A stretch of 64,000 bases of DNA from a virus. The stretch is from the IMG/VR virus record IMGVR_UViG_3300023116_000035, positions 6,303-70,302 of that record, one strand, 5' to 3'. The position numbers were made by a program, and so were the translations under genes. Shown piece by piece: positions 5,866 to 61,297 of the stretch (its first letter is position 1; each line of letters begins with the position of its first letter). The notes beneath the pieces were generated by a model. That model was not told the DNA's origin. It saw nothing but the letters and a program-made list of their open reading frames with translations, and did no database searches.

Positions 5866-5867
5866 CT

Positions 5868-20172: not shown

Positions 20173-20177
20173 ATTAC

Positions 20178-20822: not shown

Positions 20823-20838
20823 TTTCGACGGTGCGATT

Positions 20839-20877: not shown

Positions 20878-20891
20878 GGAAAGGTTGTCTT

Positions 20892-36712: not shown

Positions 36713-36791
36713 AATTGATTACGAATTTCGTATTTTTCTGAGAACGCTTTACCGTTCAAAAATATATATTAAAATTTTTATGAAATTTAGA

Positions 36792-43140: not shown

Positions 43141-43467
43141 GTGACGAAGACTTTTATGAATATATTGAAAGAACTAAAGAATCAGCACCAGACGGTGTTT
43201 TTGATGCTAGTGACTATGTGAATAGTATTGAGAAAGTTATTCACATGCTTGATAGTATTGATTATATTGATTCTGATGAGGGCAGAATGCTTGGCATGAT
43301 GGGTTTGGTTTCTATGATGACAGAAAGCGAACTTGATGCTGTTGCTGTTGGTTATGTTTTTATAACTCTGCTATCTAGTCTTGACGATTTGGTTGATGGT
43401 TCGTATCAATCTTTTGTCATGTCTATGAAGAATGATGTTGTACCTGTTTTGAAGGAGAGTCAATCAA

Positions 43468-43764
43468 GTGTCCCCTACTGGCGATGATTTGAAATGGTTG
43501 AAAGATGGTCTTTGCAGAAGTCATGAGACTAGTGCTTTCTTTCCAGAAACTGGTGACAACAACGCATCTAAGAGAGCAAGAACTATTTGCAAAGGTTGTC
43601 CAGTTCAAATTGAATGTTTAACTTACGCCTTGAAAGAACGTGAAGTCTTTGGTGTTTGGGGTGGTTGTACACCTCGTCAAAGAACAAAGATTAGGCGTTC
43701 GATTGGTGTGAAGAATATTTCTATTACTACTGTAAAGGAGTTTTTAATTGCTAAGCAAATATAA
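43468..43764 (+). CDS. whiB: WhiB-family transcription factor (second copy)
   Basis: 'W...GLC.....FFP......A..ICKGCPVQIECL.YAL...VFGVWGG.T..QR'. Confidence 0.9.
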   Translation: MSPTGDDLKWLKDGLCRSHETSAFFPETGDNNASKRARTICKGCPVQIECLTYALKEREVFGVWGGCTPRQRTKIRRSIGVKNISITTVKEFLIAKQI

Positions 43765-44596
43765 AATTGTGCTTACGAAGGAGATGACTTTAGAACTTTC
43801 ATCCGAAATTGAAGCAAAGCAAATTACTGACATTATTGCTGATAGAGAAACTATAAATAGTTTCATCGGCAACAATGCTGTAATTACTTGTGATTACAAG
43901 TTGGTCGAAAATGTCTGAGTGGTCATCAGAAGGACTCAACTTTGATGCAAAGGTTCACATAAAGGATCTTTCAAAGTTTGGTGTTCAGAAAATCATTGAT
44001 GATAGTTCATCTTTAGATGAAGAAACTGAGGAGGAAGATAGCGATGAGTAAGTCTGCATCATTTATGCAGAAGTATTGGTTCGCTAGAGGATTCTACGAT
44101 AGGCTCGCTTTTTCTGCTAAGGATGTGCCATCGATTGAGGTGGTCGAATATGCGGAAGAAGTGACTGGAGTTAATATCTTAAAAGAATATGAGGCTGGCT
44201 ATGACCAGGCAGAAAAGGATAGGGTAAATAGTGTCATCTGAAGAATTATCATGTGCTCAGCGTATTGATGATCAATTAGCAGGCAGAGAAGAATCGCTAC
44301 AGAATATCTTTAAAGATACGGATAGTGATGATTATGAAGAGAATGAAAATGGCTGGGAAGCATTGCATGAGTATGCTCTTGGTTATGAAAAGAAAGATAT
44401 GTTGAAGATTGAACTATCAACTGGTGGACCAGGTGATTGGTTGGAGTGCTATCTTTCTGATAACAAAGTGTACAGAGTTGAGTATCATTTTAATGATTGG
44501 TTTGATCATGCTCAAACAGTCGTTGATGAGGATTCGTATGTGTTTAGATATGCAGAATATATTGTTGAAGGAATATACTTTAACTGAAAGTAGGTA

Positions 44597-45487
44597 ATGA
44601 AAATGGAAGAAATGCAAACTACTGAACAGTATGTTCAGGCAAATACAGATACAGATACAAGTGAGGTAATTATTGTGGACAACACAACAAACTATCCTGT
44701 CGAGAAGCCTAATCCTTTGGATGTGTTGATAAAAACATTCGGTGATTTGCTTCTTGAAAATGACGATTTCAATTACAATATTGTTCGCTCTAGTGCTGAG
44801 CGTGTGACTGATACATTCGATATTGATGATCATCTTGATATGGATGATTTAGCGGAAAAGGTTACTTACTCAATGAGTATTAGTGACCTTGCTGAATCAG
44901 TCGTTGAGGAAATGGATATGGGTAATTTGGCAGATAATGTTCTAGAGAGCATTGACTATTCAGATCTTGCTAGCGACCTTACTGATCATATCGATTTTGC
45001 ATATGAGGTTGATAGGCATGTTGATGTTGCAGATAAGGCTTATGATCTTTTGTCTGATTACAATCCTAGCAATACTTGCAGTCTTGGTGATCAGTTTACT
45101 CAAGCAATTGCTAGAGCTTTGGGATACATGATGGAGAACGAAGATAACGAGAATTATGAAGTAATCAAGTTCCTCATGAATCGCAATGCTATCGTTATGG
45201 AACGAGTAGTCGATAGTGACAAGAATGTTGTTGAAGAAAATATTGTTGCGGCTGAAGGTGAAGTTTTCCGTAATGATGATGCTAATTTGACTGACGCTGA
45301 AAACTTTGTGCCTTCAGAAATTCCTGCAACTAATGTTCAGGAACATGCTATTGAAGCAATGAAGCGTGTTGTTCATGAAGTTCTTGCTTCTTATGTTCCT
45401 ACTTATGCTGATGATCCTTACATGAAGATTCGTTTGGAAGCGAAAGCTTTTGATACCTTTACCGATTACATGAATGGAAAGTGGTGA
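44597..45487 (+). CDS. Highly acidic protein with ~12-aa tandem repeats
   Basis: 'DMDDLAEKV/SISDLAESV/DMGNLADNV/DYSDLASDL'. Confidence 0.7.
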   Translation: MKMEEMQTTEQYVQANTDTDTSEVIIVDNTTNYPVEKPNPLDVLIKTFGDLLLENDDFNYNIVRSSAERVTDTFDIDDHLDMDDLAEKVTYSMSISDLAESVVEEMDMGNLADNVLESIDYSDLASDLTDHIDFAYEVDRHVDVADKAYDLLSDYNPSNTCSLGDQFTQAIARALGYMMENEDNENYEVIKFLMNRNAIVMERVVDSDKNVVEENIVAAEGEVFRNDDANLTDAENFVPSEIPATNVQEHAIEAMKRVVHEVLASYVPTYADDPYMKIRLEAKAFDTFTDYMNGKW

Positions 45488-45488
45488 T

Positions 45489-47141
45489 ATGGGAAAGTAT
45501 ATTCGTATTAGCAATACAGCGGAGAATGGTGTCATTGTTCCCCGGATTGCTTTAGAAAAACTTGGTCTTTCAACTAAGCGTGATAGTTCTGAAACCATTG
45601 GTCGCTTTGGTTCTGGAATTAAGTTTGCTCCTATTGCAGCTTTGCGTAATGGTTGGGAGTGGTGGTTTGTTGGTAATGACAACAATGGACCTTACTACAT
45701 GCAATACATTGTTCGGAAAGAAGACGGTGTTGATTGCATTTGGTATGACTATGGTGATGATGTAAAACCTTCATCTTTCACTCTTGGTGCTGGTGAACTT
45801 TCTTGGACTGATGCTTTTCAGATTATTCGTGAGCCTATTGCGAATGCTATGGATGGCGTTAAAGAGTTTGGTGGTGAATGGTCAATTGATATTGTTGATG
45901 AGATAGGCTCTGCTGTTTCAGATTGCTTTGAAGTTTATATTACGGCTTCTCCTGAACTGATTAGCATTCTTGACAATATCGATCTTTACTTTTCTCACAA
46001 CAGAAAGGTTCTTGCTTACTCAGGATATCGAGATATTCTCGAGAAAAAAGATCAAACAATGCGAGTCTTTTCGCAGAATGTTTTGGTTTATCAAGATTCA
46101 GAAATTCAATCAATGTTTGATTATGAATTTGGTGTGATTGAACTGAATGAAGAAAGGACTATCAAGTCTGAGTGGGATTTGTGTTGGGCTATTTCTTCTA
46201 CAATCAGAAGTGTCACTGATCAGGAATTGATGTCTAGAATTTTGAGTCAGGCTTTGAATCAGACACCGTATTTTGAGTTTGAAAAGATTTCTTCTTCTAA
46301 TTATACTGGTATGGGTTTTGATGGTGATTGGGTTGAAACTTTTACCAACATTTATGGCTCTAATGCTGTTATTTATCCTAACAATGCAATGTCTGATTCT
46401 ATCAAACAATCTTTGAGATTGCGTGGTAGTGTACCTGTCTTTGTTGAAAATGAAGGTGCTTACGGTTTCCTTTGTGCTACTGGTATTCCCAATTATATGA
46501 CTAGTTTGGGTGAAGAATTTGAGTATGATATCGAAGATGATATCAGTTACTATGGTGAACTTGTTCGTGCAATTTCATTTGTAAAAGCTGCTATTCCTGA
46601 TGCATCAGAATTGCTAGACCATTGTGGTGTGTTGAAAGGTGAAGCTTCGCTTCAATGCAAAGGTTTGACTATTAACAAAGACAATCCGGACAAGGTTAAA
46701 ATCCTAGTTTCGGAAGATCATTTGAACAGCGGTTCTGTTTCAGATATTGTTGCTACTTTGGTTCATGAATACGATCATGCCTCTACTGGCATTGGTGATG
46801 GTTATTCTAGTGAAGGAAAGCAATTCCGTGATTTGGCAGATAAGCGTATCGGTCAAATGATTGTGAAACATTACAAGCCGAATCCATTTTTCATTGAAGA
46901 TGGCGTGGTATGCTTTAAGGTGTCAGATATGGCAATCGTTGGTGGTGAACTTGTTGCTATCACCGAACATGTTCGTATGCTTGACTGTTTCCTAATGAAA
47001 ATCGGCAACTTTGTATTCAAAGCTTTTGGTGATGAGATCGAGGAGAACTTTGGTCATGAGCATCAACCTCATTTCTGTCAGGGTGCTACTGTTGTTTCTT
47101 ATCCAACATTCATCAATGTTGAAAGGATTGAGATTGTATAG
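45489..47141 (+). CDS. GHKL-ATPase-like protein with C-terminal HExxH motif
   Basis: 'GLSTKR...IGRFGSGIK', 'REPIANAMD', 'TLVHEYDH'. Confidence 0.65.
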   Translation: MGKYIRISNTAENGVIVPRIALEKLGLSTKRDSSETIGRFGSGIKFAPIAALRNGWEWWFVGNDNNGPYYMQYIVRKEDGVDCIWYDYGDDVKPSSFTLGAGELSWTDAFQIIREPIANAMDGVKEFGGEWSIDIVDEIGSAVSDCFEVYITASPELISILDNIDLYFSHNRKVLAYSGYRDILEKKDQTMRVFSQNVLVYQDSEIQSMFDYEFGVIELNEERTIKSEWDLCWAISSTIRSVTDQELMSRILSQALNQTPYFEFEKISSSNYTGMGFDGDWVETFTNIYGSNAVIYPNNAMSDSIKQSLRLRGSVPVFVENEGAYGFLCATGIPNYMTSLGEEFEYDIEDDISYYGELVRAISFVKAAIPDASELLDHCGVLKGEASLQCKGLTINKDNPDKVKILVSEDHLNSGSVSDIVATLVHEYDHASTGIGDGYSSEGKQFRDLADKRIGQMIVKHYKPNPFFIEDGVVCFKVSDMAIVGGELVAITEHVRMLDCFLMKIGNFVFKAFGDEIEENFGHEHQPHFCQGATVVSYPTFINVERIEIV

Positions 47142-47556
47142 ACTTATCTATCTAGCAGGTTTTGCTGCTGTGGCTACTGTTGCTATTGCGGCTATACCTT
47201 TGTTGATATTTCTTCTTGCAATGTATGGCTTGGTCATGTTGATTTCGGTGCTTGTCTAATGCCTAAACATAAGAAGTATTTTGTTGTTGAGTTTCGTCTA
47301 CCTTTTGAGGTTCAGGATGTAGATGCAATTCAGATTGCTGTTAATCGGGCTAAGGTTATGTGTGAGAACATGTTTGACTTTATTCCTGAGAATTGGTATG
47401 CCAGGATTTTTGAGTATGAGACAGACAATGAGGTTTCTGGTCCTGTCAAAGAATACTTTTACAATCCGAACTCTGCTTCTTTTCGTGAAATAGAAAAGAA
47501 CATTGGATACCATAATGATTTAGTTAAGAAAGGATTAGATCCAACTAAGGATTTAG

Positions 47557-47832
47557 ATGATGAGAGTTGAGACAAGAATTGTTGATATTGATTCGTCACA
47601 TATTTCAAGACTGGAATATGTCTGGCATAGTGACGATGATTGGGCGTTGAATAATTGTGGACATGTTCGTGCAACATTTCAGAACGGTATCAGGTACATT
47701 TATGAAGAAGTTCCTTTTATTGTTTTGATGAATGTTGTGGCTAGCGAATCTGTAGGTCAAGCTTTTAACACTTTGATTAAGGGTGCTAATTATTCTTATT
47801 ACAAAGAGGGTGAATCTGTAGATGGGAAATAA
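47557..47832 (+). CDS. KTSC-domain protein
   Basis: 'SSHISRLEY...FQNG.RY.Y..VP......SESVGQAFN..IK'. Confidence 0.75.
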   Translation: MMRVETRIVDIDSSHISRLEYVWHSDDDWALNNCGHVRATFQNGIRYIYEEVPFIVLMNVVASESVGQAFNTLIKGANYSYYKEGESVDGK

Positions 47833-48253
47833 GTCAGCAACTTGCGCTGGCTGTCTGCAAAAGTTTGATTATAATTTGCTCGTCAATTATCGAAAAAAGA
47901 AATGGTGTAGTAGTAGTCAGTGCAAGGATGTAATTGACAATAAGGTTAAGCATTTCAATTACAAGAAGAAGATTAAAAAGATTGAGAGAGGAACTTATCG
48001 CAACGGTGTTTCTTTGGAAACTAGGCGTGAGATATTAGAAAGGGATAGATATACTTGTGCGCTCTGTGTCGAAGTTGATGATGGAGAGTTTAGTAAGATG
48101 CAGATTCATCATATCACGCCAGTTTCAGAAGGCGGTAATGATGACAAATCCAATCTGATTACTCTGTGTTTTAATTGTCACAAAGATTTGCATAGTTCAG
48201 GATGGGAGCAATATGTCGAAGTATTACAAAAAAGCCTTAAGAATATGGCGTAA
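47822..48253 (+). CDS. HNH endonuclease
   Basis: 'ILERDRYTCALC...IHHITPVSEGG.....NLITLCFNCH'. Confidence 0.88.
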   Translation: MGNKSATCAGCLQKFDYNLLVNYRKKKWCSSSQCKDVIDNKVKHFNYKKKIKKIERGTYRNGVSLETRREILERDRYTCALCVEVDDGEFSKMQIHHITPVSEGGNDDKSNLITLCFNCHKDLHSSGWEQYVEVLQKSLKNMA

Positions 48254-49078
48254 AAAAGAAAAGCCGGAAGATGTTCTGCCTTTCATTAAGAATTGGGTGG
48301 ACAGTCTAGAAAGAGAAATGAGAAGAAGTGGGAAAGACTCTGAGTTCATTAGCGAGTTGCTTGAAGCAGCCTATGTTTATTATGGTGAAACCTTCACAGA
48401 AGAAGAAAAGTCGGATGCGTTCATCTACCTCTTAGGTTTGCTGCATAGGAATGTGAAATGAAAGAGGTCTTGTGAAAGCAAAATCACCACCTAGATGGGT
48501 TAAATTAGAGATGCTTGACTTACAACATCAAGGGGTCAACCTTTATGATTGGGAATCAGTGAAGGAGTTCTTGGAGGGACAAAATCGCTTTACTATGCTA
48601 GAATGGGTTAAGGATCACAGGCAGCTATTTAACTATTCTGTTTTGTCCAAAAACTACAAGGCTTTGTGATGAACGAAGATACGCAAAAGGTTTTATATAC
48701 AGATGTGATGCTGGAACTTCTTTCTGCGTATCTTTTTTCTGATGAAGAGGGTGGGAAAGATCTCACTATTGAACTTATGGAATCTGTAAGGAAAGATGAA
48801 GTCCTTGCTGGTAAGGGTTTGATGGAAGGGTTGGTTTTCTCTTCTGTAATACATCTTGCTCTTATGATTACCCTTTTTGGTTTAGTAACTGGTCGTAGTA
48901 GAAAGGACGTTTTGCAGTTGTACGCTATGTCATATCAGATGACTAGAGATTCGGTTTCAGAAATGCCGCAAGTACACCCTGAGATAGTTAATAAATTAGT
49001 CGAAGAACTAGACGGCTTGCTTTAGATTGCAGACTAAGAGTCTGTAAGTTTTTATTCTCACAAAGGAGGTAACTTGCT

Positions 49079-49681
49079 ATGAGAATTATTGTATTATTTA
49101 TTATGGCGGTAGCGTCATTATCTTTTTCTATTGGAAAGGACGTAGGTGAATCACAAAGTAAAAGCGAACAAGAAATGGTGGTCAGCACTGCTGCTGTTTC
49201 TTCTGGTTATGTAGGAAATCCTTTTATAATTGAAGACTTGTCTGCTGATATGCATGATAGTGAAACTATTATTCCTGCATATCCTGATTTGCCTATCGGT
49301 GTCACTTATGAGACAACAACGACAAGTACAACGACAACTACTACCACTATTCCTTTACCTGATGGTAGTTGTTCTGAATGGTATCCTATTGCACTTGAGG
49401 CTGGTTGGTCAATTGATCAGTTACAGAAACTTGGTCGTATCATGTGGAGAGAAAGTAATTGTCTTCATGACATTGCAAACAAGACTTATTCTTATGGCTT
49501 AACTCAAATTGAGTGGTCTGCTCATAAAGGATGGCTTGAGTCTGAGTTTAATATTACTGTAAGAGAGGATTTGTATGATCCGTATACAAATTTGTTGGTA
49601 GCGAAATGGTTGTTTGACTATGCAAAAGATTCTTATGGTTGCGGCTGGCAACCTTGGTATATGAGTGGAGATTGGTGTTAA
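49079..49681 (+). CDS. Secreted lytic transglycosylase (SLT/lysozyme-like)
   Basis: Signal peptide, Thr-rich linker, 'IMWRESNC', 'SYGLTQI', 'LYDPYTNL', 'GWQPW'. Confidence 0.75.
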   Translation: MRIIVLFIMAVASLSFSIGKDVGESQSKSEQEMVVSTAAVSSGYVGNPFIIEDLSADMHDSETIIPAYPDLPIGVTYETTTTSTTTTTTTIPLPDGSCSEWYPIALEAGWSIDQLQKLGRIMWRESNCLHDIANKTYSYGLTQIEWSAHKGWLESEFNITVREDLYDPYTNLLVAKWLFDYAKDSYGCGWQPWYMSGDWC

Positions 49682-50956
49682 TGAAACTGTCAGAGTATTA
49701 TTTGAATGAAGACTATCCTGGAGTTGTGTTTGAATGTCTGGGGCATCCTCTTGAAGTAACTATCAATCATCATGGTGATGTAATTAGAGAGGAAGAAGAT
49801 ACTGAACAGGCTATTATTCGTATGGTCGGTGATAGTCAAGAATTTGTTTATTACATTGATGATTTGATTCCGTATGAAGGGAAGGTGTGTAGTTGTGGTC
49901 AGGAAGGATGTGGTCATGCTTTCTGAGATTGTGCATTGGAGTCTTGCTCTGACCGGTGTTGCTGGTATTTTTTATATTCGTTTTAGAAAGTGAGAGATAT
50001 GAATTGGGTTAAGTTGATTGCTGTTGTTGCAACAATTCTGTTGCTTGGTATTCCTGCTTATAAGATTACGAGAGGTGATTGGGAAAGATGGTAAAGAAAG
50101 ATCCGGTATGTCCTCGTTGTTTGGGTTTTATTCCAAACAATCAAACTCCAGGTGCCTATATGGGTGCTCTTAGTAGAACAGATAATAAGACAGAGATTTG
50201 TTCTGATTGTGGTACAGAAGAAGCGATGCAAGATTTTATTGATGGATTTTGCACTAAACAGAAAGATTGGATGATTAATCGTGAATATTCAAACTAAAGC
50301 AAGATGTGTCGAATGTGGTCGTGTCTTTGATCTTTTAGATGAAGATGACGCTCAGGAATGGTATTGCGGTCATGACTGTGAATCCTGAAATTAATTCTGA
50401 TGATTCCAATATTGGGATTGTTGCTGAATTTGATGACGGCGGTTTCTTGAATTACATCTTCAGTGATGAAGGTATGATTATTGATCATTATGATGAGAGT
50501 GGTGAGTTGATTATGACTGCTGCTATGACTTACTATGAGTGGTGCGATTGGATGCACGCTACGTATGGAGATTGAGATGACTGATTTGCAATATCCTATA
50601 TGGGCTATCAAGCGTAGAGATGATGAAAAGGAATCTCCTGTAAACAAGCATGGTCATCCTGGTTTTAATCATGCTTTGTGGTATTGGTGGAGAGTCAAAG
50701 TTGGTGGTAATGTTTATCAACAATTGACTTGGGAAGCGGCTATGAATCGTATTGAGTTTCACAATCAGGATGTGTACAACAAAAATTCTTATCGTCATGA
50801 TCCTTTTTGGGATATCCATTGGGAGAGGCTTTCTGAAGATACATGGCGTATTTTGAAGTCAAAGGGTGGTAATCGTATTGCTATTGCTACTCTTGTGAAG
50901 ACTCAAAAGATTAAAGATCCTGAATCAACTTATCGTTGGTATAGGAGTTAAGTTCG

Positions 50957-51184
50957 CCAGTATCTAATAGCATGGTGATTAGGGAGATCCTAATACGACC
51001 TTTGGTGTTGTTGGTTCATGAAACACTATTAGATATTGGTTAAAATCGGGGTCTATCCTTGTAACGGATAGGCTTAAAAGAAGCGAAGTAGTTATATTTT
51101 GAGAAGTGTGGAGATGCTTAGGAATTGTAGCCGAAGGTCTATGAAGCACGGAATGAATATGATGAAAGATAGCCGAACCCGATT
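50957..51184 (+). ncRNA. Two candidate structured RNAs upstream of tRNA
   Basis: Closing stems CCAGTATCTAATAG/CTATTAGATATTGG (50957-51039) and AATCGGG/CCCGATT (51044-51184); no ORF. Confidence 0.45.
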
Positions 51185-51186
51185 AT

Positions 51187-51259
51187 GCCCTTATAGCTCA
51201 ATGGATAGAGCAAATGACTTCTAATCATTAGGTTGTAGGTTCGAGTCCTACTAAGGGCG
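51187..51259 (+). tRNA. tRNA-Arg(TCT)
   Basis: Acceptor GCCCTTA/TAAGGGC, D-arm GCTC/GAGC, anticodon arm AATGA-CTTCTAA-TCATT, GGTTCGAGTCC T-loop; CCA not encoded. Confidence 0.95.
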
Positions 51260-51261
51260 CT

Positions 51262-51450
51262 GGGAAATATAAACATTATTGCTGCTGTGACGGACATTAC
51301 ATCGGCGTTTATGTTTCCCTTATTTTTGAGTAGGCTAAGCGCATTTTCCTTTCTGATGCGTTAAGGGAAACCTGTACAAGTTGATTGTTTGTTGGGCAAT
51401 CACCTGTGTATCAAAGGCTTTGTCTAAGCTAAAGGTTTTCTGCCTACTCA
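51262..51450 (+). ncRNA. Two candidate structured RNAs downstream of tRNA
   Basis: GGGAAATATAAAC/GTTTATGTTTCCC (51262-51319); TGAGTAGGC/GCCTACTCA enclosing a multibranch fold (51327-51450). Confidence 0.5.
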
Positions 51451-51493
51451 TTTTCTTTATCAATTATAAACTATATCAACTTAGGAGGTTGGT

Positions 51494-51910
51494 GTGAATA
51501 CACAAAGAATGATGATACTTGCAGATTTGCTTGACTCATTACCTGAAGAAAAATTTGAACTTGCCTATTGGGTAAATGATAGACGACAGGAGGGAGAAAC
51601 ACCTGATTATGTTGATCTTTCAGTTTATGATTGCAATACGACTGCATGTATTGCTGGATGGGCTGTTGCTTTGAAAAATGATTTAGCCGTAGATAATTTG
51701 TATTGTGGTGATGTAGAAGTCCAAGCGGGTGATTATCTTGGTTTAAATCGTCAGGAAATGCAACGTCTTTTTTTTTATGGTTTAGACACCATCTGGAGCG
51801 ACCATGCTCATGAATTAGGATGTGAATCTCCTTACGATTATACAGTAACAAATAAAATGGCAGCTAAGGCTGTCCGTAACATTGCACAAGGAAAGTGGGA
51901 ATTGGTATGA
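51494..51910 (+). CDS. Hypothetical protein, paralogue of next gene
   Basis: 'CNTTACIAGWAVALKND', 'KMAAKAVRNIA.GKW'. Confidence 0.7.
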   Translation: MNTQRMMILADLLDSLPEEKFELAYWVNDRRQEGETPDYVDLSVYDCNTTACIAGWAVALKNDLAVDNLYCGDVEVQAGDYLGLNRQEMQRLFFYGLDTIWSDHAHELGCESPYDYTVTNKMAAKAVRNIAQGKWELV

Positions 51911-52449
51911 ACAAAGAAAGAATGCTTATGCTGGCTGACGTTTTAGATAAGGTCAAGCCTATGCAGTTCAACATGGGTGATTGGTTTTCGGTCTATGTTG
52001 GTGATGAAGATTACGCAGAAGAAGATATTTATTATGAAGATTCTGATGTGTTTCGAACAAACACTGTTATGCAAATGAATGGCTATAATTGCGATGCTGC
52101 TGCTTGCATTGCGGGTTGGGCTGTTGTTTTAAAGAATGACTTTGCTGTTAACAATCCTAACACTTTGTGTGTCAATAGTTCTAGTCGCAATAGTTGGGAT
52201 GAACGTCTTGCTGCTGGTGAACTTCCAGTTATGCAAGAGGCTAAGGAATATCTTGAACTTACAGTTGATCAGTCAATTGGTTTGTTTTTGAATGAAGATG
52301 GGTATTCTGTGTGGCAATATTATGCCGGAGACTTGGGTATTAAAGATACTCATTACATTAGTCTTAATGATATTACTCCTAAGATGGCTGCAATGGCTTT
52401 GCGTAATCTTGCTAATGAGAAGTGGAAGTTTCCTGCTGATGAGCACTAA
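51907..52449 (+). CDS. Hypothetical protein, paralogue of previous gene
   Basis: 'CDAAACIAGWAVVLKND', 'KMAAMALRNLANEKW'. Confidence 0.7.
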   Translation: MNKERMLMLADVLDKVKPMQFNMGDWFSVYVGDEDYAEEDIYYEDSDVFRTNTVMQMNGYNCDAAACIAGWAVVLKNDFAVNNPNTLCVNSSSRNSWDERLAAGELPVMQEAKEYLELTVDQSIGLFLNEDGYSVWQYYAGDLGIKDTHYISLNDITPKMAAMALRNLANEKWKFPADEH

Positions 52450-53632
52450 AAAGATTGATGCAAGTCAATGGGAAAATGATATCCCTACATATCGTGAGAT
52501 TATGGATGAAAGAAAGTTACATGAAATTGATCCTAATCAATACAACCCTTGGAATTTTTTCTTAACATATAAAGGAGAGAATAAAAATGGAAAGAAGTGA
52601 TACTTATAATAAGCATTTGCTTATTGAGGACTTTTGGTTGAGAGGATATTATCTTGCTCTTATGAATTGTCGTGTTGTTGATGTAAAAGTCAATGCTCAA
52701 ATTAACGATTACGGTGAAGAATTGTGGCCTGTGATTGTCTTTGAAGATGCAAATGGTGAGCAATTTGAGTGTGAAATTAGCCGTGACCCTGAAGGTAATG
52801 GGCCTGGTTTCATGTTTGGTCTGCCTCAGTATTCTGTTCCAGAACACATTCGCAAAGGCTTTGAGTCTTTAGATAGTGAAGATCTTAAAATTATAATGAA
52901 AGGTAAGTTTGGTATCTGATGGGTCCAAGAAATAAAACATCTCATGGTATCACAAATAAAAATGAAACTGTTGGTAAGCATGTTCGGTTTATTGGTATGG
53001 GCGGTAATTGGTACAATTGCCCTCAATGTAATCGTAAGTTTGCGAGAGGGTTCTTCTGGGAAGAGGGAGATAAGAACGGATGTTCGCAAACGTGCCTTAA
53101 GAAACAAATCTAATTACATGTACGAATAAATAATCATAATGATGAATAAATATCAACGAACGGGGAATTTTGGAGTCAACATTTTACACAGTATTCGACG
53201 AAAACAATTTGGACTTTCCGGAAGTGGAGGATATCGCTCAATGTTTTGCAAACGTCTATGACGATTTTGGTAGACCTGATCCTGACAGTAATCTTGATCT
53301 TTATCGAGAGAAGTTACCAGAGATGTTGCAGAAGGTTTGTGACAGTTTGATGATCAAATATATTTACTGTAGCGTAAATATATTGTTGTTCACAGACGGT
53401 GTGGTTGAGGGTAATGACATTGATCAATTGTTGAAGAATTTGAAGGAGAAACATCGGAACGATCCAGCTGTTCCACTAGTTGAATAAGTAAACAATACCC
53501 CCAACCCTTTTATGCAGTAATCCTTAGGATTGTTTAAACATAAATTGTGTTGGGGGTACTTTAACTTACATTAAGTTTTGCTCGCCTTAGAGAGCAAATT
53601 AGACGGGTCTGAGAGGACTCTGGAGGTATAAA

Positions 53633-53848
53633 ATGACAGGTTGGAATATCGATTACTCTTTGCGTGGTACTCGTATTGAGTTGGTTCATACTAGTGATCC
53701 TTATACTAAGTTGAAGCCAGGAGATAAAGGTACTATTAAGTTTGAACATCAGGATAGTATTGCTGTGATGTGGGACTGTGGTTCTGCTCTTAGCATGAGA
53801 GAATGTGATGGAGATAGGTTCAAGGTTTTGGAGGAAGAAAATGTCTGA
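53633..53848 (+). CDS. DUF4314-like protein
   Basis: 'GTRIELV...DPY..L.PG.KGT......I.V.WD.GS.L'. Confidence 0.7.
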   Translation: MTGWNIDYSLRGTRIELVHTSDPYTKLKPGDKGTIKFEHQDSIAVMWDCGSALSMRECDGDRFKVLEEENV

Positions 53849-55530
53849 TCAGTATACGGTTTGGAAGTTGTTTATAGGTCATGAAGATGCAAAGGGTACA
53901 CCTGAGGAAACTGCTGAGATCTATAATGATCTGATCCTAGAGGCTTTAAATGAGAAACTGGCACCGGCTTTTATTGATTTGGAGTGTGAGGATTACGGCA
54001 GTCCTAATGCTGTCTTTGATGTGGAGGATTTAGATGATTGATGAAATGTATATAGTTATGCATGGAAATCCTTTTGAGGGCTATCAGTTTTTCGGTCCTT
54101 TTGGAACTATAGATGATGCACAGGATTGGGGTGAATCTAATTCTGAATTAGAGTGGTACTTGGTTCGATTAGAAGAGCCTGAGGGTGCTGATTACATTAA
54201 GGGTGGCTATTACTGGTCAGATGCGGCTAAAGAGATTGTTCAGGAAATGAGGAAGGCTAATGGGTCTTGATTTCAGCGAGTATAAGGCTGACCCTAATTT
54301 TTGTGTCTATTGTAGGCGTAGAGATATAGGTATTCATGACAATTATGTCATGGAGAAAGATGTGATTGTTGTGACTGTTTCTTGCAACATTTGTGATGGG
54401 AAATGGACTGAATGTTATACGTTGAGTTCTGTATCTTATGACGACAACTTTGTTGCAAAGACTGCTGAACAATTGGATCATGAGTATCGTATTGCGAATA
54501 TGACTGAGGAGGAAATTTATGGAAGATAATTATATTCCGGATTGGTTTGATGCGATTCTTCGTATCAGATACAACTCTGACGTTCTCATTGAGGAATTGC
54601 AAAAGGATGGAATTGAGAATGTTACTATTGATGACATTATGATCGCCATTGATCGCAAGTTGACTGATCTTTATGGTCATCGTAGTAGTCGTGAATTTGT
54701 TGTGTTTGATTCTGATGGAGAGGAGTGGTAATGGATAATCGGTTGTTGAATGCTCAGAGTACTAAGATTGCTTCTTGGTTGAAAGATAATGGTTACACTT
54801 CACTGGTTGAGTGGGGTTTGGATTCTGATTATTGTATGGATGATGATGGGATTTGGTACGATGACAATGGTAATGCAGTGGATATCTTCTCCCAAGCTTA
54901 CTATGCAATGGAGGCAGCAAATGAAAGTGTGTAAAGATTGCGGTTCTGATGCGGTTACTGAGATCGCTTATATCATCTTGAATGATAACGATTATGTTAG
55001 TAGGTCTGGCATATTTGTTTGTGATATTTGTACTATGAATCATCCTAGAAGCGAGGGGATTGGGGTGGTTGATCAAAATAAGGCACCGATAAGGGGAATA
55101 TAATGACTGAAACGGGTGAGTATCTTAATGATTTGGAGTGGTTGCATTTTTTGGTTTTAGAGATGCAGGATGATGGATATGAGTTACCTGCCGGTGATTA
55201 TGATATGGTAATCAAAATCGTAGAGGATGTTAGGGAATACTTCCTGCTTAAATGGGTGAAGGAAAATGTCTGAGAATTCTGGCGGGGTGAAAGTATTTAT
55301 ATCTATAGATAGATACATAGATATAGATACGTATCTCAGACTAGGATACGCCCCAATTCAGATTCTGAATTAAGAAAATACGTACAGAATAACGTATAAC
55401 GTTCTTGTGTTGTGTGTTCAAATAAAGGTAAATATATTAAAGAAAGAGACTAGTTTTTAGCATTTATCACATAAAATCGTAAAAAACCTTAGGATTATTT
55501 ACTTTTCCTATGTATGGCTGCGTCAATTAG

Positions 55531-55588
55531 GCGGGTATGGGTTGTGTTCCCTCTATCTATAGAGAGAAACACCTATACCCGCTTTTTT
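55531..55588 (+). terminator. Long hairpin with U-tract ending the + strand block
   Basis: GCGGGTAT...ATACCCGC then T6. Confidence 0.65.
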
Positions 55589-56088
55589 GCGTTATGCCCT
55601 AATTTTCCTAAGGGTTTAAATATAAGTGTGTCTATCCCCTATCTATAGGTGGGCACATAAAGCCGCCATAAAGTTTATTATGATTTGTATCATAAAGTTC
55701 AGGCGGGGATATGGGTGTATCTGTACTACTAGAATAGATAGTAGATATGACCCCGGCATAAAGTTTGCCATAAAGTCTTGGATGAATTTCAGATTTTACA
55801 TTGGTGTAATCTGTTAACTAGATTTTTCTCTATCTTTCATTAGTTAGTTACTAAATTGTTTTGCTTGTGTTAGGTTAGTTTTGTTACAGTGCTAACCTAA
55901 CGCATTCAACTTGGAGCAGTATGTTAGGTTAGTTTCGAACCAGTGCTAACCTAACGAACCAGGCCATCTAACGCAAAAGACCCTCACCTAACTTGGACCG
56001 GTATCTGTCCTTGTTAGATGAGGGTCTAGTGCCATCGGCTGTGTTAGCCGGAGCCTCCCACCTGGTTTGTTAGGTGGGGTTTGTTAGG

Positions 56089-56373
56089 TCACGCCTTGCG
56101 TGTTACCTGAGGCACACCGGCGGGCGACCAACGGACACCGACCCGGATGTTAGCGACCTTAGCCGCTGACCGGATTTGGTTTCCGTTAGTTACCTGCTCC
56201 GCTTTGGTTGTGGCCGTTAGTTCGGCAATGCGAGCGATGTCCCCAACCTTTAGGTTAGAAAGGACCTGCTCTGCCAGTGCCTGAACTAACTCAGAGGGCT
56301 TGCGACCCCGCTGTGTTACCTCAACCTCAGCTTCGGTGATGACCTCGAATGAGAAGTTCGTCATGTTAGACAA
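56089..56373 (-). CDS. RGR-family small protein (start may be ATG 56364)
   Basis: Clearly paralogous to ORF 56958 (shared 'TQRGR.PSE', 'GNQIRS.AK.A', 'RWSPAGVPQ'). Confidence 0.85.
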   Translation of the reverse strand: MSNMTNFSFEVITEAEVEVTQRGRKPSELVQALAEQVLSNLKVGDIARIAELTATTKAEQVTNGNQIRSAAKVANIRVGVRWSPAGVPQVTRKA

Positions 56374-56888
56374 ACATCCTTTCCCCGGCTTGTTAGCCGG
56401 ACTGGAGGTGTACCGACGTTAGGTGGATACCCATTCCCAACGTGCTTCCCTAACTATTTGCGTCTGTTAGGTCCAGACGTACCATGCTGTCTCTCCCCGG
56501 TCTGTTAGATGAGGGTCAACTAACAGGCATGGCAAGGGCCGGAGAGGAAAAATCGAACTCTTTAGTTAGAAAGGAGCGTCGCCCCGGAGGGCTACGCCTA
56601 CCTTATCAAGTTAGTTCGGGTAAAGGTAGTGTGTTAGCCATTACTCAGATATTTCTTGTTAGGTAGGCCCTGGCTCTAATGTTAGATGCGTTAAAGTCCG
56701 GACAAATATGTTAGGTTAGATTCGGTCTAGTACTCCCTAACATAAAGCCCTGGCCAGCGTTAGAATATACACTAAAGTTAGATGAGTATGTTAGGTTAGA
56801 ATTGCGGGTGTACAAATTCGACGAAGAGCAGTCGGAACACCCGCCGACCTAACCTAACAGACTTACCTAACCTAACGTATCGACCTAA

Positions 56889-56919
56889 CAAAGAAAGACC
56901 CACCCCGAAGGGTGGGTCT
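56889..56919 (-). terminator. Rho-independent terminator
   Basis: AGACCCACCC-cgaa-GGGTGGGTCT with adjacent A-rich run (UUCG loop and U-rich tail on minus strand). Confidence 0.8.
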
Positions 56920-56957
56920 AACTTAGAGGGAAGGAATGTTAGAAGGGGGGAACTAAC

Positions 56958-57224
56958 TCAGTCCTTCATCTCGATTTGGGGGACACCGGCTGGCGACCAG
57001 CGGATACCAACCTTGCGACCGGCAATCTTTGCACCGGAGCGGATTTGGTTGCCCTTTGTCACTTTGTCAGCATCGTTAGTTGCACGCAACTCTTCGATGC
57101 GGATGATGGCACCCTTTGACTGTGGTTCCAGAATCATTGCGATGGCCTGTGCCTCTTCTGATGGCTGACGACCACGCTGTGTGGTTTCCACATCGTCTTC
57201 GCTGATAAGTTCGAAGTTGAACAT
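56958..57224 (-). CDS. RGR-family small protein
   Basis: AGAGGA RBS; paralogue of ORF 56089. Confidence 0.85.
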   Translation of the reverse strand: MFNFELISEDDVETTQRGRQPSEEAQAIAMILEPQSKGAIIRIEELRATNDADKVTKGNQIRSGAKIAGRKVGIRWSPAGVPQIEMKD

Positions 57225-57266
57225 TGTTTCCTCTCTGCCGAATCAGTTGTTCATCGACTAATAGAT

Positions 57267-57295
57267 ACACTAATGTGTGTTAGCAGCTGACACAA
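57267..57295 (-). promoter_or_regulatory. Sigma70-like promoter TTGTGT-17-TAGTGT with CTAAC in spacer
   Basis: Same position and spacing as in the other cassettes. Confidence 0.55.
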
Positions 57296-57566
57296 GGCTG
57301 GCGGAAAGTTTTTTGTTAGGGGCCTTTTGTTAGAACTGAATACATTTCAGTGTTAGTCCGAATAAAGTCGAACGTTGTGTTAGATATGAGCTAAAGTTAG
57401 GTCTATTTGTTAGGTTAGAACCGCTGGTGTTCAACGCCGAAGCATATCTGATCGGCACACCAGCCCAACTAACCTAACAGGGCAGAACTAACCTAACATG
57501 TCTTGACTAACAAAAAACCCGCCCTCTGTGTTAGAAGGCGGGCTTTATGTTAGGTGTTGGGCTTTG

Positions 57567-58052
57567 TTAGTATTCCCGACAGAACACGACTGCGTAGTTG
57601 TCGTCGTGAGGGTGTCTAACAACTGACCACTTTGCGTAGGAATGAATGTTACGAAGCGCACCATGCATTTTGATTAGTGGTTTTGCACTTCCACCTAACA
57701 CATCGATTGGGAAAATAACATGAGGGTATCGGGTGATTGCCTCAGCCACCGCAATCCGGCTGTTATTTCCAAGAAACTGAACTTTGTTAGGAAGCTTTTC
57801 AAATCCCCTCAATGTCCACAAACAGACGGCTGCTAACGTGCCGGTTTGGTTCCAGGGAGTAATCCAACCAGCATCTACCGCTTTGTTAGCAATGGTTCGG
57901 ATTTCTTCTGCTTGAATGAAATCCTCAAACGGACTATGAGCGACAAAAATCTTGCCGTCTAACTCAGTCACAATGTTATCTTTTATGCTAACAGTGAGTG
58001 AGCTAACTTTGATGTTCGGGTGGGCTTTTGGTTTGTTTGGGTTTGTGTTCAT
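57567..58052 (-). CDS. Hypothetical protein, probably leaderless
   Basis: ATG 7 nt after a -10 box; own terminator at 57512-57543. Confidence 0.75.
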   Translation of the reverse strand: MNTNPNKPKAHPNIKVSSLTVSIKDNIVTELDGKIFVAHSPFEDFIQAEEIRTIANKAVDAGWITPWNQTGTLAAVCLWTLRGFEKLPNKVQFLGNNSRIAVAEAITRYPHVIFPIDVLGGSAKPLIKMHGALRNIHSYAKWSVVRHPHDDNYAVVFCREY

Positions 58053-58059
58053 AGACACA

Positions 58060-58089
58060 AACTTATCAAGTTAGATCAGCCTAATGCAA
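58060..58089 (-). promoter_or_regulatory. Promoter TTGCAT-18-TAAGTT with CTAAC in spacer
   Basis: Direct reading of the minus strand. Confidence 0.6.
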
Positions 58090-58309
58090 TAGTGTTAGAC
58101 ATAAAGTTGGAATTTTTTGTTAGGTCCGAATAAGTCGATGTTATGTTAGAATATGCACTAAAATAACGGTGCTGCGTTAGGTTAGATCTGCGGGTGTGCA
58201 ACTTGGGTTTGTTGTTGCGGAACACCCGCCGTTCTAACCTAACACGCTGGTTCGACCTAACGCAAAAGACCGCCCCCTTGTGTTAGGAGGCGGCCTATGC
58301 GGGGGTATG

Positions 58310-58594
58310 TTAGAGGTCGGGGATTTCTACGTCGTAGAGGTGGCGGGCGCAGTCAGGACAGCATGACCGTGAGCAGTCCACCGAGGTAATCCAGTAGGTT
58401 AGGCCGTTCGGCATTGCCTCTGAGTTAGAGATGTCGGGACGCTCGCAGGTGCGGTTGATTGTCTCCCACACCATGTCGTAGTAGTTGAATGTTAGAACGC
58501 CGGGACGGTTGGGGACTTCGTGTCCGCATTCGAGGGTCACCGTGTCGGGTGACTGATAGGCTGGGTCAGTTAGTTTTTTGAGGTCGTAGGTCAT
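58310..58594 (-). CDS. Cys-containing hypothetical protein (MTYDLKK...)
   Basis: GAAAGGA-CCTAAC-ATG; terminator at 58264-58296. Confidence 0.7.
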   Translation of the reverse strand: MTYDLKKLTDPAYQSPDTVTLECGHEVPNRPGVLTFNYYDMVWETINRTCERPDISNSEAMPNGLTYWITSVDCSRSCCPDCARHLYDVEIPDL

Positions 58595-58605
58595 GTTAGG
58601 TCCTT

Positions 58606-58800
58606 TCAGACGGTTGGTGGGATGTAGGGGACATAGTTGCCGTTGCGCTGTTCGCAGATTGTTAGGTCGGTGACCCCGAACAGGTCGCGTGCGTTGCGAA
58701 TGTAGGTTTCGCAGGACTCTAACGAACCTACATGCTGGACATACTGTCCGTTGTGAACGTAGAGGGTTCGGGGGATGCGCTTTTTGTTTGGTGTGTTCAT
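58606..58800 (-). CDS. Hypothetical protein
   Basis: 64 aa; candidate leaderless start after TAGGGT. Confidence 0.6.
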   Translation of the reverse strand: MNTPNKKRIPRTLYVHNGQYVQHVGSLESCETYIRNARDLFGVTDLTICEQRNGNYVPYIPPTV

Positions 58801-58997
58801 ACACCAAACCCTAATCTGTTAGTTCAGCGTATTCCTACAATGTTAGCCATAAAGTTGATATTTTTTGTTAGACATAAAGGTGTATTGTGTGTTAGATTTG
58901 CACACTAAATCCGGCCTAGTTTGTTAGGTTAGTTCTGAACCAGTTCGGGCTAACGAAAAAGACCCCCCATTTCTGGGGGGTCGAATTCGACGGTAGA

Positions 58998-59459
58998 CTA
59001 GTTCGCAATGAATGCGAACGAATCTTCATCCAATCGTGTCCACGACACCTTGCACGATGCTCCGATACGGTCACCGAATCGGGGAGCGTCACCGTTGAGA
59101 GTGTGCAACCGGAATAGGTTAGAAAGCGTGGTGGTGGCATTCTTAGTGTGCTTCTCTGTCCACACTTCCACGTTGGCAATGTCCCGAACCCGAATGACAA
59201 CATGCGGGGTCTTCGGGTTAGTTGCAAGAATGTCGGCAACGTGCGAAGTGTGAATCTGAGTTGTGTCTCCCCATTCTGCCATTCTGTTAGCAACGTGGTC
59301 AGCGACACCGACACGAACCAATGCGGCAATGGCTGACCATGATGCAATGGCTTCGTTAGAAGTGGGAGCACCCTTGCGACTTAACACTAGGTCTCTATCT
59401 TCACGCTTTACCGTTACACCTTGTCGGGTGATGCTTGCGTTAATTGAGTTGATATTCAT
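58998..59459 (-). CDS. Hypothetical protein (MNINSINASIT...)
   Basis: AGAGGA RBS; terminator at 58956-58982; N-terminus similar to ORF 60596. Confidence 0.75.
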   Translation of the reverse strand: MNINSINASITRQGVTVKREDRDLVLSRKGAPTSNEAIASWSAIAALVRVGVADHVANRMAEWGDTTQIHTSHVADILATNPKTPHVVIRVRDIANVEVWTEKHTKNATTTLSNLFRLHTLNGDAPRFGDRIGASCKVSWTRLDEDSFAFIAN

Positions 59460-59496
59460 TTGGTTCCTCTCTGTTCGGTACTTCCGAACTACGTTC

Positions 59497-59526
59497 ACGT
59501 TATCAAATGGGGTTAGGTCTTCGCAA
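59497..59526 (-). promoter_or_regulatory. Promoter TTGCGA-18-TAACGT with CTAAC in spacer
   Basis: Direct reading of the minus strand. Confidence 0.5.
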
Positions 59527-59772
59527 CTTAACATAAAGCTGATTCTTTCCGTTAGTCGAATAAAGTTGGTTACCATGTTAGTTCCATAAAGGCAACCTAT
59601 TAGTTAGGTTGCATACTCAACTTCTTGTTAGGTTGCATGTTAGAATTGCGGGTGTGTAACCGCTGCGCGATCAATTATACACACCCGCCTAACCTAACAT
59701 ACGTATCTAACCTAGCTGCGGTAACTAACAAAGCCGCCCCGTTAGGAGCGGCTCTGTCAGGGAAGGATCTTG

Positions 59773-60006
59773 TTAGTCGTCAGAGATCATCTCTGTTAGT
59801 TCTGCTTCTGTTAGTTGGTATGGATCAACTGCGTTAGCAATCCGGGCAACAGCCTCTTCCATACCTAACTGAAAGGCTCGATCAAGTTTCTCGTTAGCCT
59901 CACGCTCCACTATGTTAAGTGTGTTCGTTAGGTAGATGAGCGATGCCCATGCTCCTAACGCTGCTGAGAATGCTACGGTGACGGTGATTGTTAGTACGAT
60001 GAACAT
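59773..60006 (-). CDS. Small membrane-anchored protein
   Basis: GAAGGAAA-CTAAC-ATG; N-terminal hydrophobic helix. Confidence 0.7.
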   Translation of the reverse strand: MFIVLTITVTVAFSAALGAWASLIYLTNTLNIVEREANEKLDRAFQLGMEEAVARIANAVDPYQLTEAELTEMISDD

Positions 60007-60047
60007 GTTAGTTTCCTTCCTGTCAGGGGGTTGACCTGACACCTACG

Positions 60048-60076
60048 AATGTAGTCTGTGTTAGGTGTCAAGTCAA
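60048..60076 (-). promoter_or_regulatory. Promoter TTGACT-17-TACATT with CTAAC in spacer
   Basis: Near-consensus sigma70 boxes. Confidence 0.7.
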
Positions 60077-60096
60077 CCTTTCCGACGAATGTTATG

Positions 60097-60303
60097 TTAG
60101 AGACCCCATGCGTCACGGTGACGCTTTGCGATGGCCTCGGCCTGTGCGTTAGATACGCAGTAGAGGTGGTGGATCACGCTGTCGGAGGAGTCTCCGTTAG
60201 GTGACTGGTACCAGAGTTCGATGATCGTGTCGATGACAACGACGGCTGTTAGGTCACCTTTGACGCTGACCTTTGGGACTGTTATGTTAGGGCGGGTAGT
60301 CAT
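60097..60303 (-). CDS. Hypothetical protein (MTTRPNIT...)
   Basis: GAAGGAA-CTAAC-A-ATG. Confidence 0.7.
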   Translation of the reverse strand: MTTRPNITVPKVSVKGDLTAVVVIDTIIELWYQSPNGDSSDSVIHHLYCVSNAQAEAIAKRHRDAWGL

Positions 60304-60350
60304 TGTTAGTTCCTTCCTGTTGTGGTGGGTACTTCCCACCGACAAAGAAC

Positions 60351-60379
60351 AACCTACTCTGTTAGATACGGAATGTCAA
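60351..60379 (-). promoter_or_regulatory. Promoter TTGACA-17-TAGGTT with CTAAC in spacer
   Basis: Consensus -35; CTTTATG immediately upstream. Confidence 0.75.
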
Positions 60380-60561
60380 CATAAAGTCTGAATGTTATGT
60401 TAGCCATGTCTACTCAAATTGTTATATCTGTTAGGTTAGTTGCGTGGGTGGCATAAAGGTTAGAGTTTGTGTTAGTTCTCCATAAAGTTCGCACGTTGTG
60501 TTAGATGTGCTCAAATATGAGCTAAATGTTAGGTTAGTTTCGCCCTAGTAGGGGCGCACCT

Positions 60562-60595: not shown

Positions 60596-61066
60596 TCAGT
60601 CTTTCGTGAGAGCGACCCGCCGGAACAAGCGCACCGTTCCGTCTGCGGATGCTCGCACCCCCGCATCCTTGCTTGATGCTGGTGTGACCCACCCGATCTG
60701 CCCGACCGTTCCCATGTGGGTGGCTGGCGTGACCCGACCGTTCCGCACCGGCAGGTTGTAGGTGTTGTTCAGGTTCTCCATAGAACCGCCGACCGCCGTG
60801 AGAGCGTCCAACGGGATGTCGATGTATTCGGCGCAGTTGGTGGCGACGTAATCCCATGTGAACCGACCGCCGTTGCTAGGCGTGACCGGCTCGCAGTTCA
60901 GCAGGCTGGTGATGACAGCGTGCAAGGCGAGAGTCATATCGGGCTGGCGTGACCCCTTCTTGCGGGCGTAGGTCACGAGTGCGTCAATGTCCGCACGTTT
61001 CGGAATGGTCACACCCTTGACCGTGATGCTGGCTCGCAGTTCCTTGATGGTGTAGTTCGTGTTCAT
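60596..61066 (-). CDS. Hypothetical protein (MNTNYTIKELRASIT...)
   Basis: GAAGGAAA RBS; promoter TTGCAT-17-TACTGT at 61109-61137. Confidence 0.75.
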   Translation of the reverse strand: MNTNYTIKELRASITVKGVTIPKRADIDALVTYARKKGSRQPDMTLALHAVITSLLNCEPVTPSNGGRFTWDYVATNCAEYIDIPLDALTAVGGSMENLNNTYNLPVRNGRVTPATHMGTVGQIGWVTPASSKDAGVRASADGTVRLFRRVALTKD

Positions 61067-61297
61067 AGTTTCCTTCCGTCCGGTTCGGTTGTTCACCGGA
61101 CATCCATCACAGTACTTTGCCCAAACGCCGAATGCAACTCTTTCTAACATCTTTCGGCCTGGGTCGAAGCTGGACCATGCTTTGACCCTTGTAAACACAG
61201 GATTTCCGCAGGTCCTTAGGTAATGCATTACCTTCCTCGGATATGTATTAAAATTTTGGGCAATGTTGGGGTTGGTGTTCCTTAGGACAATTATTTG

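Follow-up and report, generated by a model that had tools for sequence, protein, structure and literature searches.

The stretch of DNA analysed here, which we call the window, comprises the terminal 64,000 bases of a linear 70,302-bp virus contig in IMG/VR (IMGVR_UViG_3300023116_000035; G000 below), rated 67% complete. Within it, a plus-strand accessory block of small genes, headed by a leader array, converges with a high-GC island of small genes on the minus strand. The subject of this study is a short element, GTTAG-N13-CTAACCTAAC (the N13 site), in which inverted arms of the pentamer CTAAC enclose a 13-bp core; one copy lies in the leader of the accessory block and a pair lies at the island boundary (Table 1). 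The anatomy of these sites, their fixed spacing, their conservation in relatives and the co-variation of their word at separate loci across lineages are observed. The reading that we lean towards, with reserve, is a composite operator-like docking site for a lineage-specific putative regulator, which would control the island and the accessory operon jointly.

Table 1. Features of the window, with positions in the 64,000-base stretch
Feature	Position	Strand	Composition	Remarks
N13 site B, distal member of the boundary pair	55869–55901		GTTAGGTTAG-TTTTGTTACAGTG-CTAACCTAAC	10+10 arms
N13 site A, proximal member of the boundary pair	55923–55955		GTTAGGTTAG-TTTCGAACCAGTG-CTAACCTAAC	10+10 arms
Leader N13 site	36792–36819	+	GTTAG-TTTCGTACCTGTT-CTAACCTAAC	5+10 arms
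Leader array	36810–37096	+	three CTAACCTAAC, then single CTAAC boxes	upstream of the first gene of the plus-strand block (37172)
Degenerate short-form site	56710–56741		GTTAGGTTAG-ATTCGGTCTAGTA-CTCC-CTAAC	
Degenerate short-form site	58923–58954		GTTAGGTTAG-TTCTGAACCAGTT-CGGG-CTAAC	
Degenerate short-form site	60528–60550		GTTAGGTTAG-TTTCGCCCTAGTA	without distal arm
Long-form element	56790–56858		GTTAGGTTAG, GC hairpin gcgggtgt..acacccgc, CTAACCTAAC	spacer 49; DNA fold −20.7 kcal/mol, z −7.3
Long-form element	57409–57478			spacer 50
Long-form element	58176–58243			spacer 48
Long-form element, single left arm	59639–59698			spacer 45
Terminator hairpin of the last island gene (56089–56373, minus strand)	55978–56027	−	followed by UUUUG	RNA fold −37.4 kcal/mol, z −5.5
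Terminator of the accessory block	55529–55589	+	followed by UUUUUU	RNA fold −34.8 kcal/mol, z −6.8
Accessory block of small genes	ORFs 37172 to 55273	+		
High-GC island of small genes	55843–60540 (4.7 kb)	−		GC 0.49 versus 0.38 elsewhere
Large terminase	33349–35079			
Tape-measure-like protein, 2110 aa	in window			
Tail fibres, exonuclease, DnaB-like helicase, large DNA polymerase	encoded in window			
Glycosyltransferase-like proteins	encoded in window			
dCMP deaminase and DNA methylase	encoded in window			

Three GTTAG-N13-CTAAC sequences are present in the window (36792, 55874 and 55928), all readable on the plus strand, against a mean of 0.05 in shuffled sequences; none of 100 shuffles reached three. 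The initial annotation had listed the same three copies, which prove exact in position and spacer, together with degenerate versions near 56710, 58923 and 60528, all of which are present. A pattern search of the whole 70,302-bp contig, as proposed there, returned these three and none further, and a control read backwards gave 0. A distinct class of site with inverted CTAAC-type arms and an asymmetric 13-bp core, as originally described, is borne out. The extended pattern GTTAGNTTYGNNNYNGT has five matches, all on the plus strand, where 0.04 would be expected; the post hoc choice of the pattern inflates this statistic. The cores TTTTGTTACAGTG, TTTCGAACCAGTG and TTTCGTACCTGTT differ pairwise at 3–6 of 13 positions.

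The arms belong to a word that is concentrated in two places. At 55.8–60.6 kb, 99 GTTAG and 39–40 CTAAC occur in about 4.8 kb, and a second cluster at 36.8–37.1 kb holds 11 CTAAC, with about one pentamer per 2 kb elsewhere; CTAAC reads in the sense direction of the downstream genes in either cluster. At the density of the island, roughly 0.8 bare GTTAG-N13-CTAAC pairs would be expected by our own arithmetic, so that such a pair is not by itself improbable by chance. The N13 sites are marked as non-random by their double arms, by the bimodality of the spacing and by how they are kept in relatives: the nearest GTTAG-to-CTAACCTAAC distance in the window is either 13 bp (three copies) or 45–50 bp (four copies) and nothing else. 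Global periodicity of GTTAG in the island is not significant (best power 2.39 versus a 95% null of 2.59). As an observation aside, CTAAC saturates the coding DNA of the island too, where it often spans a stop codon (C-TAA-C) or directly precedes ATG; the related contig L146 is likewise saturated at 1–6100 (58 GTTAG and 110 CTAAC in 10 kb), and the coding DNA of G005 and L105, which belong to sister lineages with palindromic words, is without such saturation.

The 45–50-bp class corresponds to a long form in which the arms of the short form enclose a GC hairpin (DNA folds of −20.7 to −23.7 kcal/mol). Judged from sequence, GTTAG-N13-CTAACCTAAC is the short form of an element placed between the gene cassettes of the island. 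On the sense (minus) strand, every inter-gene module of the island starts with a terminator hairpin with a T-run, followed by at least one GTTAG, by either the long hairpin or the 13-bp core, and by CTAACCTAAC; then come a TTTAG...CTAAC box, one or two ACTTTAT(G) boxes and a gene-proximal TTGnnn...CTAAC...TAnnnT, in which, read by eye, CTAAC lies 4–8 bp upstream of a −10-like hexamer. At 58296, 57546, 56919 and 58982, according to the terminator scan, and also at 55978–56027, a minus-strand terminator comes before the element. The boundary pair is found just beyond the latter terminator and about 280 bp beyond the convergent terminator of the plus-strand block, and with convergent terminators on both sides it probably receives little transcription. 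The leader copy is the first element after an AT-rich promoter-like box, ATATAyTAAAAT, that is kept throughout the whole phage group, and it heads the CTAAC array of the accessory operon. Two other module parts recur under any lineage word: the CTTTATG box, with one or two copies in nearly every module (window 56–60.5 kb, L094 1–8500, L105 8300–8700), and the GGGTGT...ACACCC hairpin, likewise kept across lineages. The box and the hairpin may be what the lineages really have in common, as parts of the promoter or of the architecture.

Relatives of the phage were collected in IMG/VR through the small protein encoded at 35465–35821, with 225 stretches matched, 135 confirmed and 80 kept; relatives of this protein thus occupy at least 135 loci, among them contigs of 90–107 kb syntenic with the window. 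The exact sequence GTTAGGTTAG-N13-CTAACCTAAC has no match in IMG/VR. A metagenome scan with a spacer of N{10,16} returned at least 117 stretches, of which the six richest in pentamers were compared by protein; among the matches listed, most look unrelated by their spacers, being telomere-like (TTAGG)n arrays and other repeat families, and one candidate, L168, was rejected as a degenerate TTAGG satellite. The sole true relative among the six loci is L146 (10,038 bp), to which all 27 tblastn rows of window proteins belong, with 60–89% amino-acid identity at the end of the accessory block and 31–84% in the island genes. It bears five GTTAG-N13-CTAACCTAAC, all five with exactly N13 and in one orientation, three of them internal to the island; 13 bp accounts for 5 of its 12 spacings, and long ones of 45 and 48 bp are also found. 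Every cassette in the window and in L146 is bounded by a short or a long element; cassette order differs (A,B,C,D,E,F,G,H in the window versus A,E2,F,C,B,G',H' in L146, which lacks gene D).

The boundary pair of L146 is orthologous to that at 55869/55923 and occupies the same island boundary. The orthologue of site B (L146 6057–6089) is identical at 29 of 33 positions, that of site A (L146 6007–6034) has 10 of 13 core positions identical, and the two boundary-pair cores show 10/13 and 9/13 identity between window and L146, against 12/21 in the stretch between the sites and 39–58% in the flanks. The leader copy is also kept at the equivalent place, as GTTAG-TTTCGTTACCGTT-CTAAC (N13) in L015 and as GTTAG-TTTCGAACCAGT-CTAAC (N12) in L025/L026; the GC-rich spacers that follow these leader copies are unconserved and could not be aligned by eye. 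Lack of a conserved spacer and core in relatives, together with a failure to detect protein binding or rearrangement, had been named in the initial annotation as what would tell against the site class, and the comparison does not refute it. The spacer is 13 bp in nine of ten copies from four phages (G000, L146, L015 and L026) and 12 bp in the tenth, and among the nine N13 cores from three phages, aligned in one orientation, there is no variation at positions 3, 5, 9, 11 and 12 (T, G, C, G, T), in contrast to positions 6–8 and 10, which vary freely. The half-site itself extends into part of the apparent core, as seen in GTTAGAA-N9-TTCTAAC of L146 and in the operator TTCTAAC|GTTAGAA of G005. Within the CTAAC lineage, then, the short form is conserved. 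The further claim that the copies at 36.8 and 55.9 kb bracket the plus-strand block stands as geometry (ORFs 37172–55273), but they are not unique brackets, as the class recurs inside the island, with three internal copies in L146 and three degenerate ones in the window. None of the relatives' contigs at hand spans both leader and boundary. A putative loop between leader and island boundary is possible.

Across lineages, it is the word that changes. The leader that follows a phrog_1574-like gene carries at least three copies of a lineage-dependent word, which is CTAACCTAAC in L015, L025 and L026, a palindrome of the TAACGTTA type (TTAACGTTAA or CTAACGTTAG) in 15 of the 80 loci, and other words elsewhere. 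G005 has 32 CTAACGTTAG in a high-GC island at 0.4–8.5 kb and three TAACGTTA in a leader at 29 kb, 20 kb away; in L105–L108 and L112 the word is GTAATATTAC; and CTAAC is the half-site of the CTAACGTTAG palindrome. Different words at equivalent places suggest a fast-evolving DNA-binding regulator (putative), and the palindromic words indicate a dimeric DNA binder. In seven island loci (L105–L110 and L112) two operators stand 44–51 bp apart around a GGGTGT-type hairpin, except in L108 (40 and 55 bp); by this recurrence the module architecture is old, and the word is its changing part. G002 has no saturating pentamer and shows 12 promoter modules TTGAGT-N17-TAGTAA, each overlapped by ACTTACT-N9-AGTAAGT and preceded by a terminator and a GC hairpin; its stretch at 18500–23200 (L009), with twelve GTTGAGTACACTTACTT about 500 bp apart, is the cleanest version of a promoter-operator island in the phage group. 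The region upstream of the 35465 gene has three CTAAC in the CTAAC lineage, with a 12-nt step in L026, and no such cluster in other lineages. Separately, the leader arrays of L025 (3737–3960) and L015 (4169–4330) are true tandem repeats with a period of 12 nt (units CTAACAGCCGAC and CTAACAGCGCAA; about nine copies in L025). A fourfold GAACCAGT in L025/L026 was discarded as a coincidence, being located in coding DNA.

That the arms are the genome's own regulatory word, changing by lineage at equivalent places, counts for the operator-like reading, as do the two discrete spacings, the retention of the short form in relatives, the core consensus, the lack of conserved base pairing and the place of the boundary pair between convergent terminators. 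GTTAG-N13-CTAACCTAAC would be a composite site on double-stranded DNA, made of three (T)TCTAAC half-sites, one facing two, at a fixed distance, and its putative binder would be phage-encoded with a lineage-specific recognition word. In the island, the element of which this is the short form separates early-type cassettes, with the terminator of the preceding cassette on one side and the predicted promoter region of the following one on the other; the leader copy covers the first ~10–40 bp downstream of the promoter-like box of the 19-kb accessory operon, and the boundary pair lies beyond the last terminator of the island. We infer that a protein binds here, docking first at the multi-box sites and then occupying nearby single CTAAC boxes, including the CTAAC 4–8 bp upstream of each gene-proximal −10-like hexamer. 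Island and accessory operon would then be switched together, by repression or by activation.

Several results weigh against this operator-like reading. Among the candidates checked, no cognate DNA-binding protein was identified and no family matched. At 5 bp, the word is too short to be recognised specifically, unless its binder acts cooperatively. The N13 form is absent from the other lineages examined, which have no preferred short spacing, and in the single orthologous boundary pair the excess of core identity (19/26, versus 12/21 between the sites and 22/40 beyond them) is modest and not significant alone. A generic sigma-70 scan of the island yielded 5 promoters versus 7.0 expected, without excess, so that the promoter context of the island rests on the TTGnnn...CTAAC...TAnnnT arrangement read by eye.

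Next to the sites are encoded the paralogues at 56089, at 56958 and, more distantly related, at 35465, which share an N-terminal RGR segment and have homologues at the equivalent island end in G005, L105–L112 and L146. The RGR segment recalls AT-hook, H-NS and Lsr2 motifs, and these paralogues may bind DNA. In a structural model (pLDDT 86), a flexible arm at the N terminus is joined to a small alpha/beta domain; the top PDB match of the model is a weak one, to the RNase E DNase-I subdomain (E 0.027, TMq 0.54), and none reaches E <= 0.001. Two further points count against the operator-like reading: neither Pfam nor PHROG has a family that the three paralogues match with a meaningful score, and as determinants of specificity they were rejected, since their RGR segment is nearly identical across lineages with different words and they are therefore unlikely to set it.

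Other explanations can be weighed against the same observations. At 55.9 kb, both copies have better folds than shuffled sequences, with −9.7 and −7.7 kcal/mol (z −5.6 and −4.4) for DNA and −13.4 and −12.1 kcal/mol for RNA, and the long form is a strong hairpin. This would suit stem-loops in RNA with a role in stabilising or processing the ends of transcripts, or DNA cruciforms extruded at the convergent junction. We consider such a role quite unlikely, because the leader copy, with its 5-bp left arm, shows no folding beyond that of shuffled sequences (z 0.2 as DNA, at −1.5 kcal/mol, and z −0.5 as RNA), four of the five L146 copies also have a left arm of only 5 bp, no U-tract follows the sites, the boundary pair lies beyond strong terminators on both strands, no Rfam family matches, and the arms equal a dispersed word that a plain stem does not need. 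As intrinsic terminators the sites were likewise rejected, with stems of 40% GC, a 13-nt loop and no T-run, and the terminator scan did not list them. IHF and LexA boxes and a sigma-70 reading of the core, compared by eye with their consensus sequences, gave no fit. Relative to local transcription, the core has opposite orientations in leader and island, with the double arm on the gene side in both. Conservation thus concerns the identity, number and distance of the boxes rather than pairing, as is characteristic of a protein-binding site in duplex DNA. The sites might instead be functionless relics, that is, collapsed or duplicated long hairpin elements spread by recombination among repeated modules. 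In favour of relics, short and long forms share their module position and the bases beside the right arm (gatt in L146), the short form is limited to one lineage, and the window has degenerate copies without an arm or with 17-bp spacing; but such an origin is hard to square with the near-constant spacer, with invariant core positions among variable ones, and with the retention of boundary pair and leader copies where neighbouring proteins are only 47–61% identical, and we judge it unlikely. In a more elaborate version of protein binding, which seems to us very unlikely, the N13 sites would nucleate or delimit a protein coat, directed by the pentamer, that covers the 4.7-kb island and bridges to the leader site 19 kb away. 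If true, the plus-strand block would be looped out and the early-to-middle switch timed, in a phage-built, sequence-addressed chromatin domain with defined ends.

The initial annotation had likened the sites to those of tyrosine recombinases, and exchange between loxP-, dif- or attC-style sites would excise or circularise the 36.8–55.9-kb block or move cassettes. Inverted arms around an asymmetric core with all copies in one orientation, a cassette order that differs between relatives with each cassette bounded by a short or long element, and the fit of GTTAGGT and ACCTAAC to the integron core words GTTRRRY and RYYYAAC speak for it. The analogy is not supported, and we regard recombination at these sites as highly improbable. 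The tyrosine recombinase family PF00589 was found in none of six records (G000 and G002–G006, with two relatives rated 100% complete, while G000 is 67% complete and a host Xer possible), and the serine recombinase family PF00239 in none of five (G000 and four relatives), while control genomes were matched in 14 of 14 and 12 of 14 cases, respectively. The crossover spacer of loxP and dif is 6–8 bp, and partner sites need identical crossover regions, so that differing cores would block strand exchange; a loxP/dif-type site was rejected here for its arms of 5–10 bp, a spacer of 13 bp (12 in L026), non-identical cores and the missing recombinase match. Integron attC sites have the order 5'-RYYYAAC ... 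GTTRRRY-3', fold as the bottom strand and have the IntI integrase nearby; attC was rejected as well, the order here (5'-GTTAG...CTAAC-3') being reversed and the PF00589 search empty. Logan contigs from four salt-marsh runs, aligned to 36400–56300, are collinear through both sites, and the joints listed (15 of 16) include none between 36.8 and 55.9 kb, which is weak evidence because contigs drop rare variants. A new recombination system is not supported. Cassette reordering needs no dedicated recombinase: homologous exchange between repeated modules of at least 100 bp suffices for it, as reported for the promoter-early stem-loops (PeSLs) of T4-type phages (PMC2839356).

As to the remainder of the phage, the best cultured matches of its large terminase in a protein search are Streptomyces phages at ~40% identity, a blastn of 55–62 kb against INPHARED in near and distant modes gave no match, and by these comparisons it appears to have no close cultured relative. 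Lysogeny genes were not found in the parts of the phage searched, the dCMP deaminase has no counterpart in G001 or G002, and ORF 60596–61228 has no IMG/VR relative by protein search. The G002 homologue of the tape-measure-like protein has 4647 aa (G002 75112–89055). Rfam at the gathering threshold finds only a tRNA in the whole window, at 51187–51259 within the accessory block (76.8 bits), where contig depth peaks in that bin in two runs; in E-value mode, 55.2–61.3 kb gave only sub-threshold chance matches. The non-coding ~600 bp between the convergent blocks (55280–55830) contain three TATCTATAGAnAGAnACA, many inverted repeats of the ATAGATA type and, on the minus strand, five ACTTTATG boxes without a gene behind them, and the equivalent position of L146 has 12-nt direct repeats similar to TCTATTTCTGCA; this stretch could serve as an origin of replication or encode a non-coding transcript.

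These observations point to a large uncultured group of phages of roughly 90–107 kb that retains a high-GC island of early-type cassettes, in which each lineage has its own version of the control word within an unchanging module architecture. The N13 site would be the simplest form of this architecture, three half-sites at a fixed distance, and could serve as a short DNA probe for the putative regulator. Palindromic, tandem and everted arrangements of one half-site would offer a natural series for the co-change of specificity between regulator and site.

Among known systems, the early promoters of phi29 are switched by p6 and p4 through many weak phased contacts and a few defined inverted sites, and half-sites of the AraC type can be used in direct, inverted or everted order. 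The likeness of both to the present sites would lie in the contact pattern and in the use of half-sites, and no homology was found; phasing of 12 nt is restricted to the leader arrays of L015 and L025/L026, without significance in the island. With loxP, dif and attC, the sites have in common inverted arms, an asymmetric centre and arm words resembling GTTRRRY and RYYYAAC, and they differ in the 13-bp spacer, the non-identical cores, the reversed order relative to attC and the absence of a recombinase gene from the records searched. No relevant literature on GC-rich early islands was found. The operators and stoperators of Cluster A mycobacteriophage repressors (PMC9283540) are likewise a short, asymmetric, multi-copy word with an orientation bias to transcription, present in intergenic and coding DNA and differing between related phages. 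Here, too, one word occurs at several separate control regions and changes between related phages. However, it has 5–7 bp instead of 13 bp, is far denser (~140 copies in 4.8 kb) and is confined to one island and two leaders, and no repressor was identified among the candidates checked.

PeSLs (Arbiol et al. 2010, PMC2839356) are modules of a stem-loop terminator and a promoter-like sequence, repeated between small non-essential genes, at which related phages differ in cassette content and order. Modules with a terminator stem-loop also stand between small early or accessory genes here, and homologous gene order differs between the window and L146, with gene D absent from L146. As to the strong sigma-70-like promoter of a PeSL, the G002 modules have a clear TTGAGT-N17-TAGTAA, and the island of the window gave 5 promoters versus 7.0 expected in the generic scan, besides the TTGnnn..CTAAC..TAnnnT arrangements read by eye. 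Relative to PeSLs, the present modules add a lineage-specific short word in a multi-box arrangement with fixed spacing (13 or 45–50 bp), this word also heads a distant operon, and no mini-circles were seen here. What is new compared with cassette boundaries of the PeSL and operator types is a lineage-specific word set in a fixed-spacing multi-box site.

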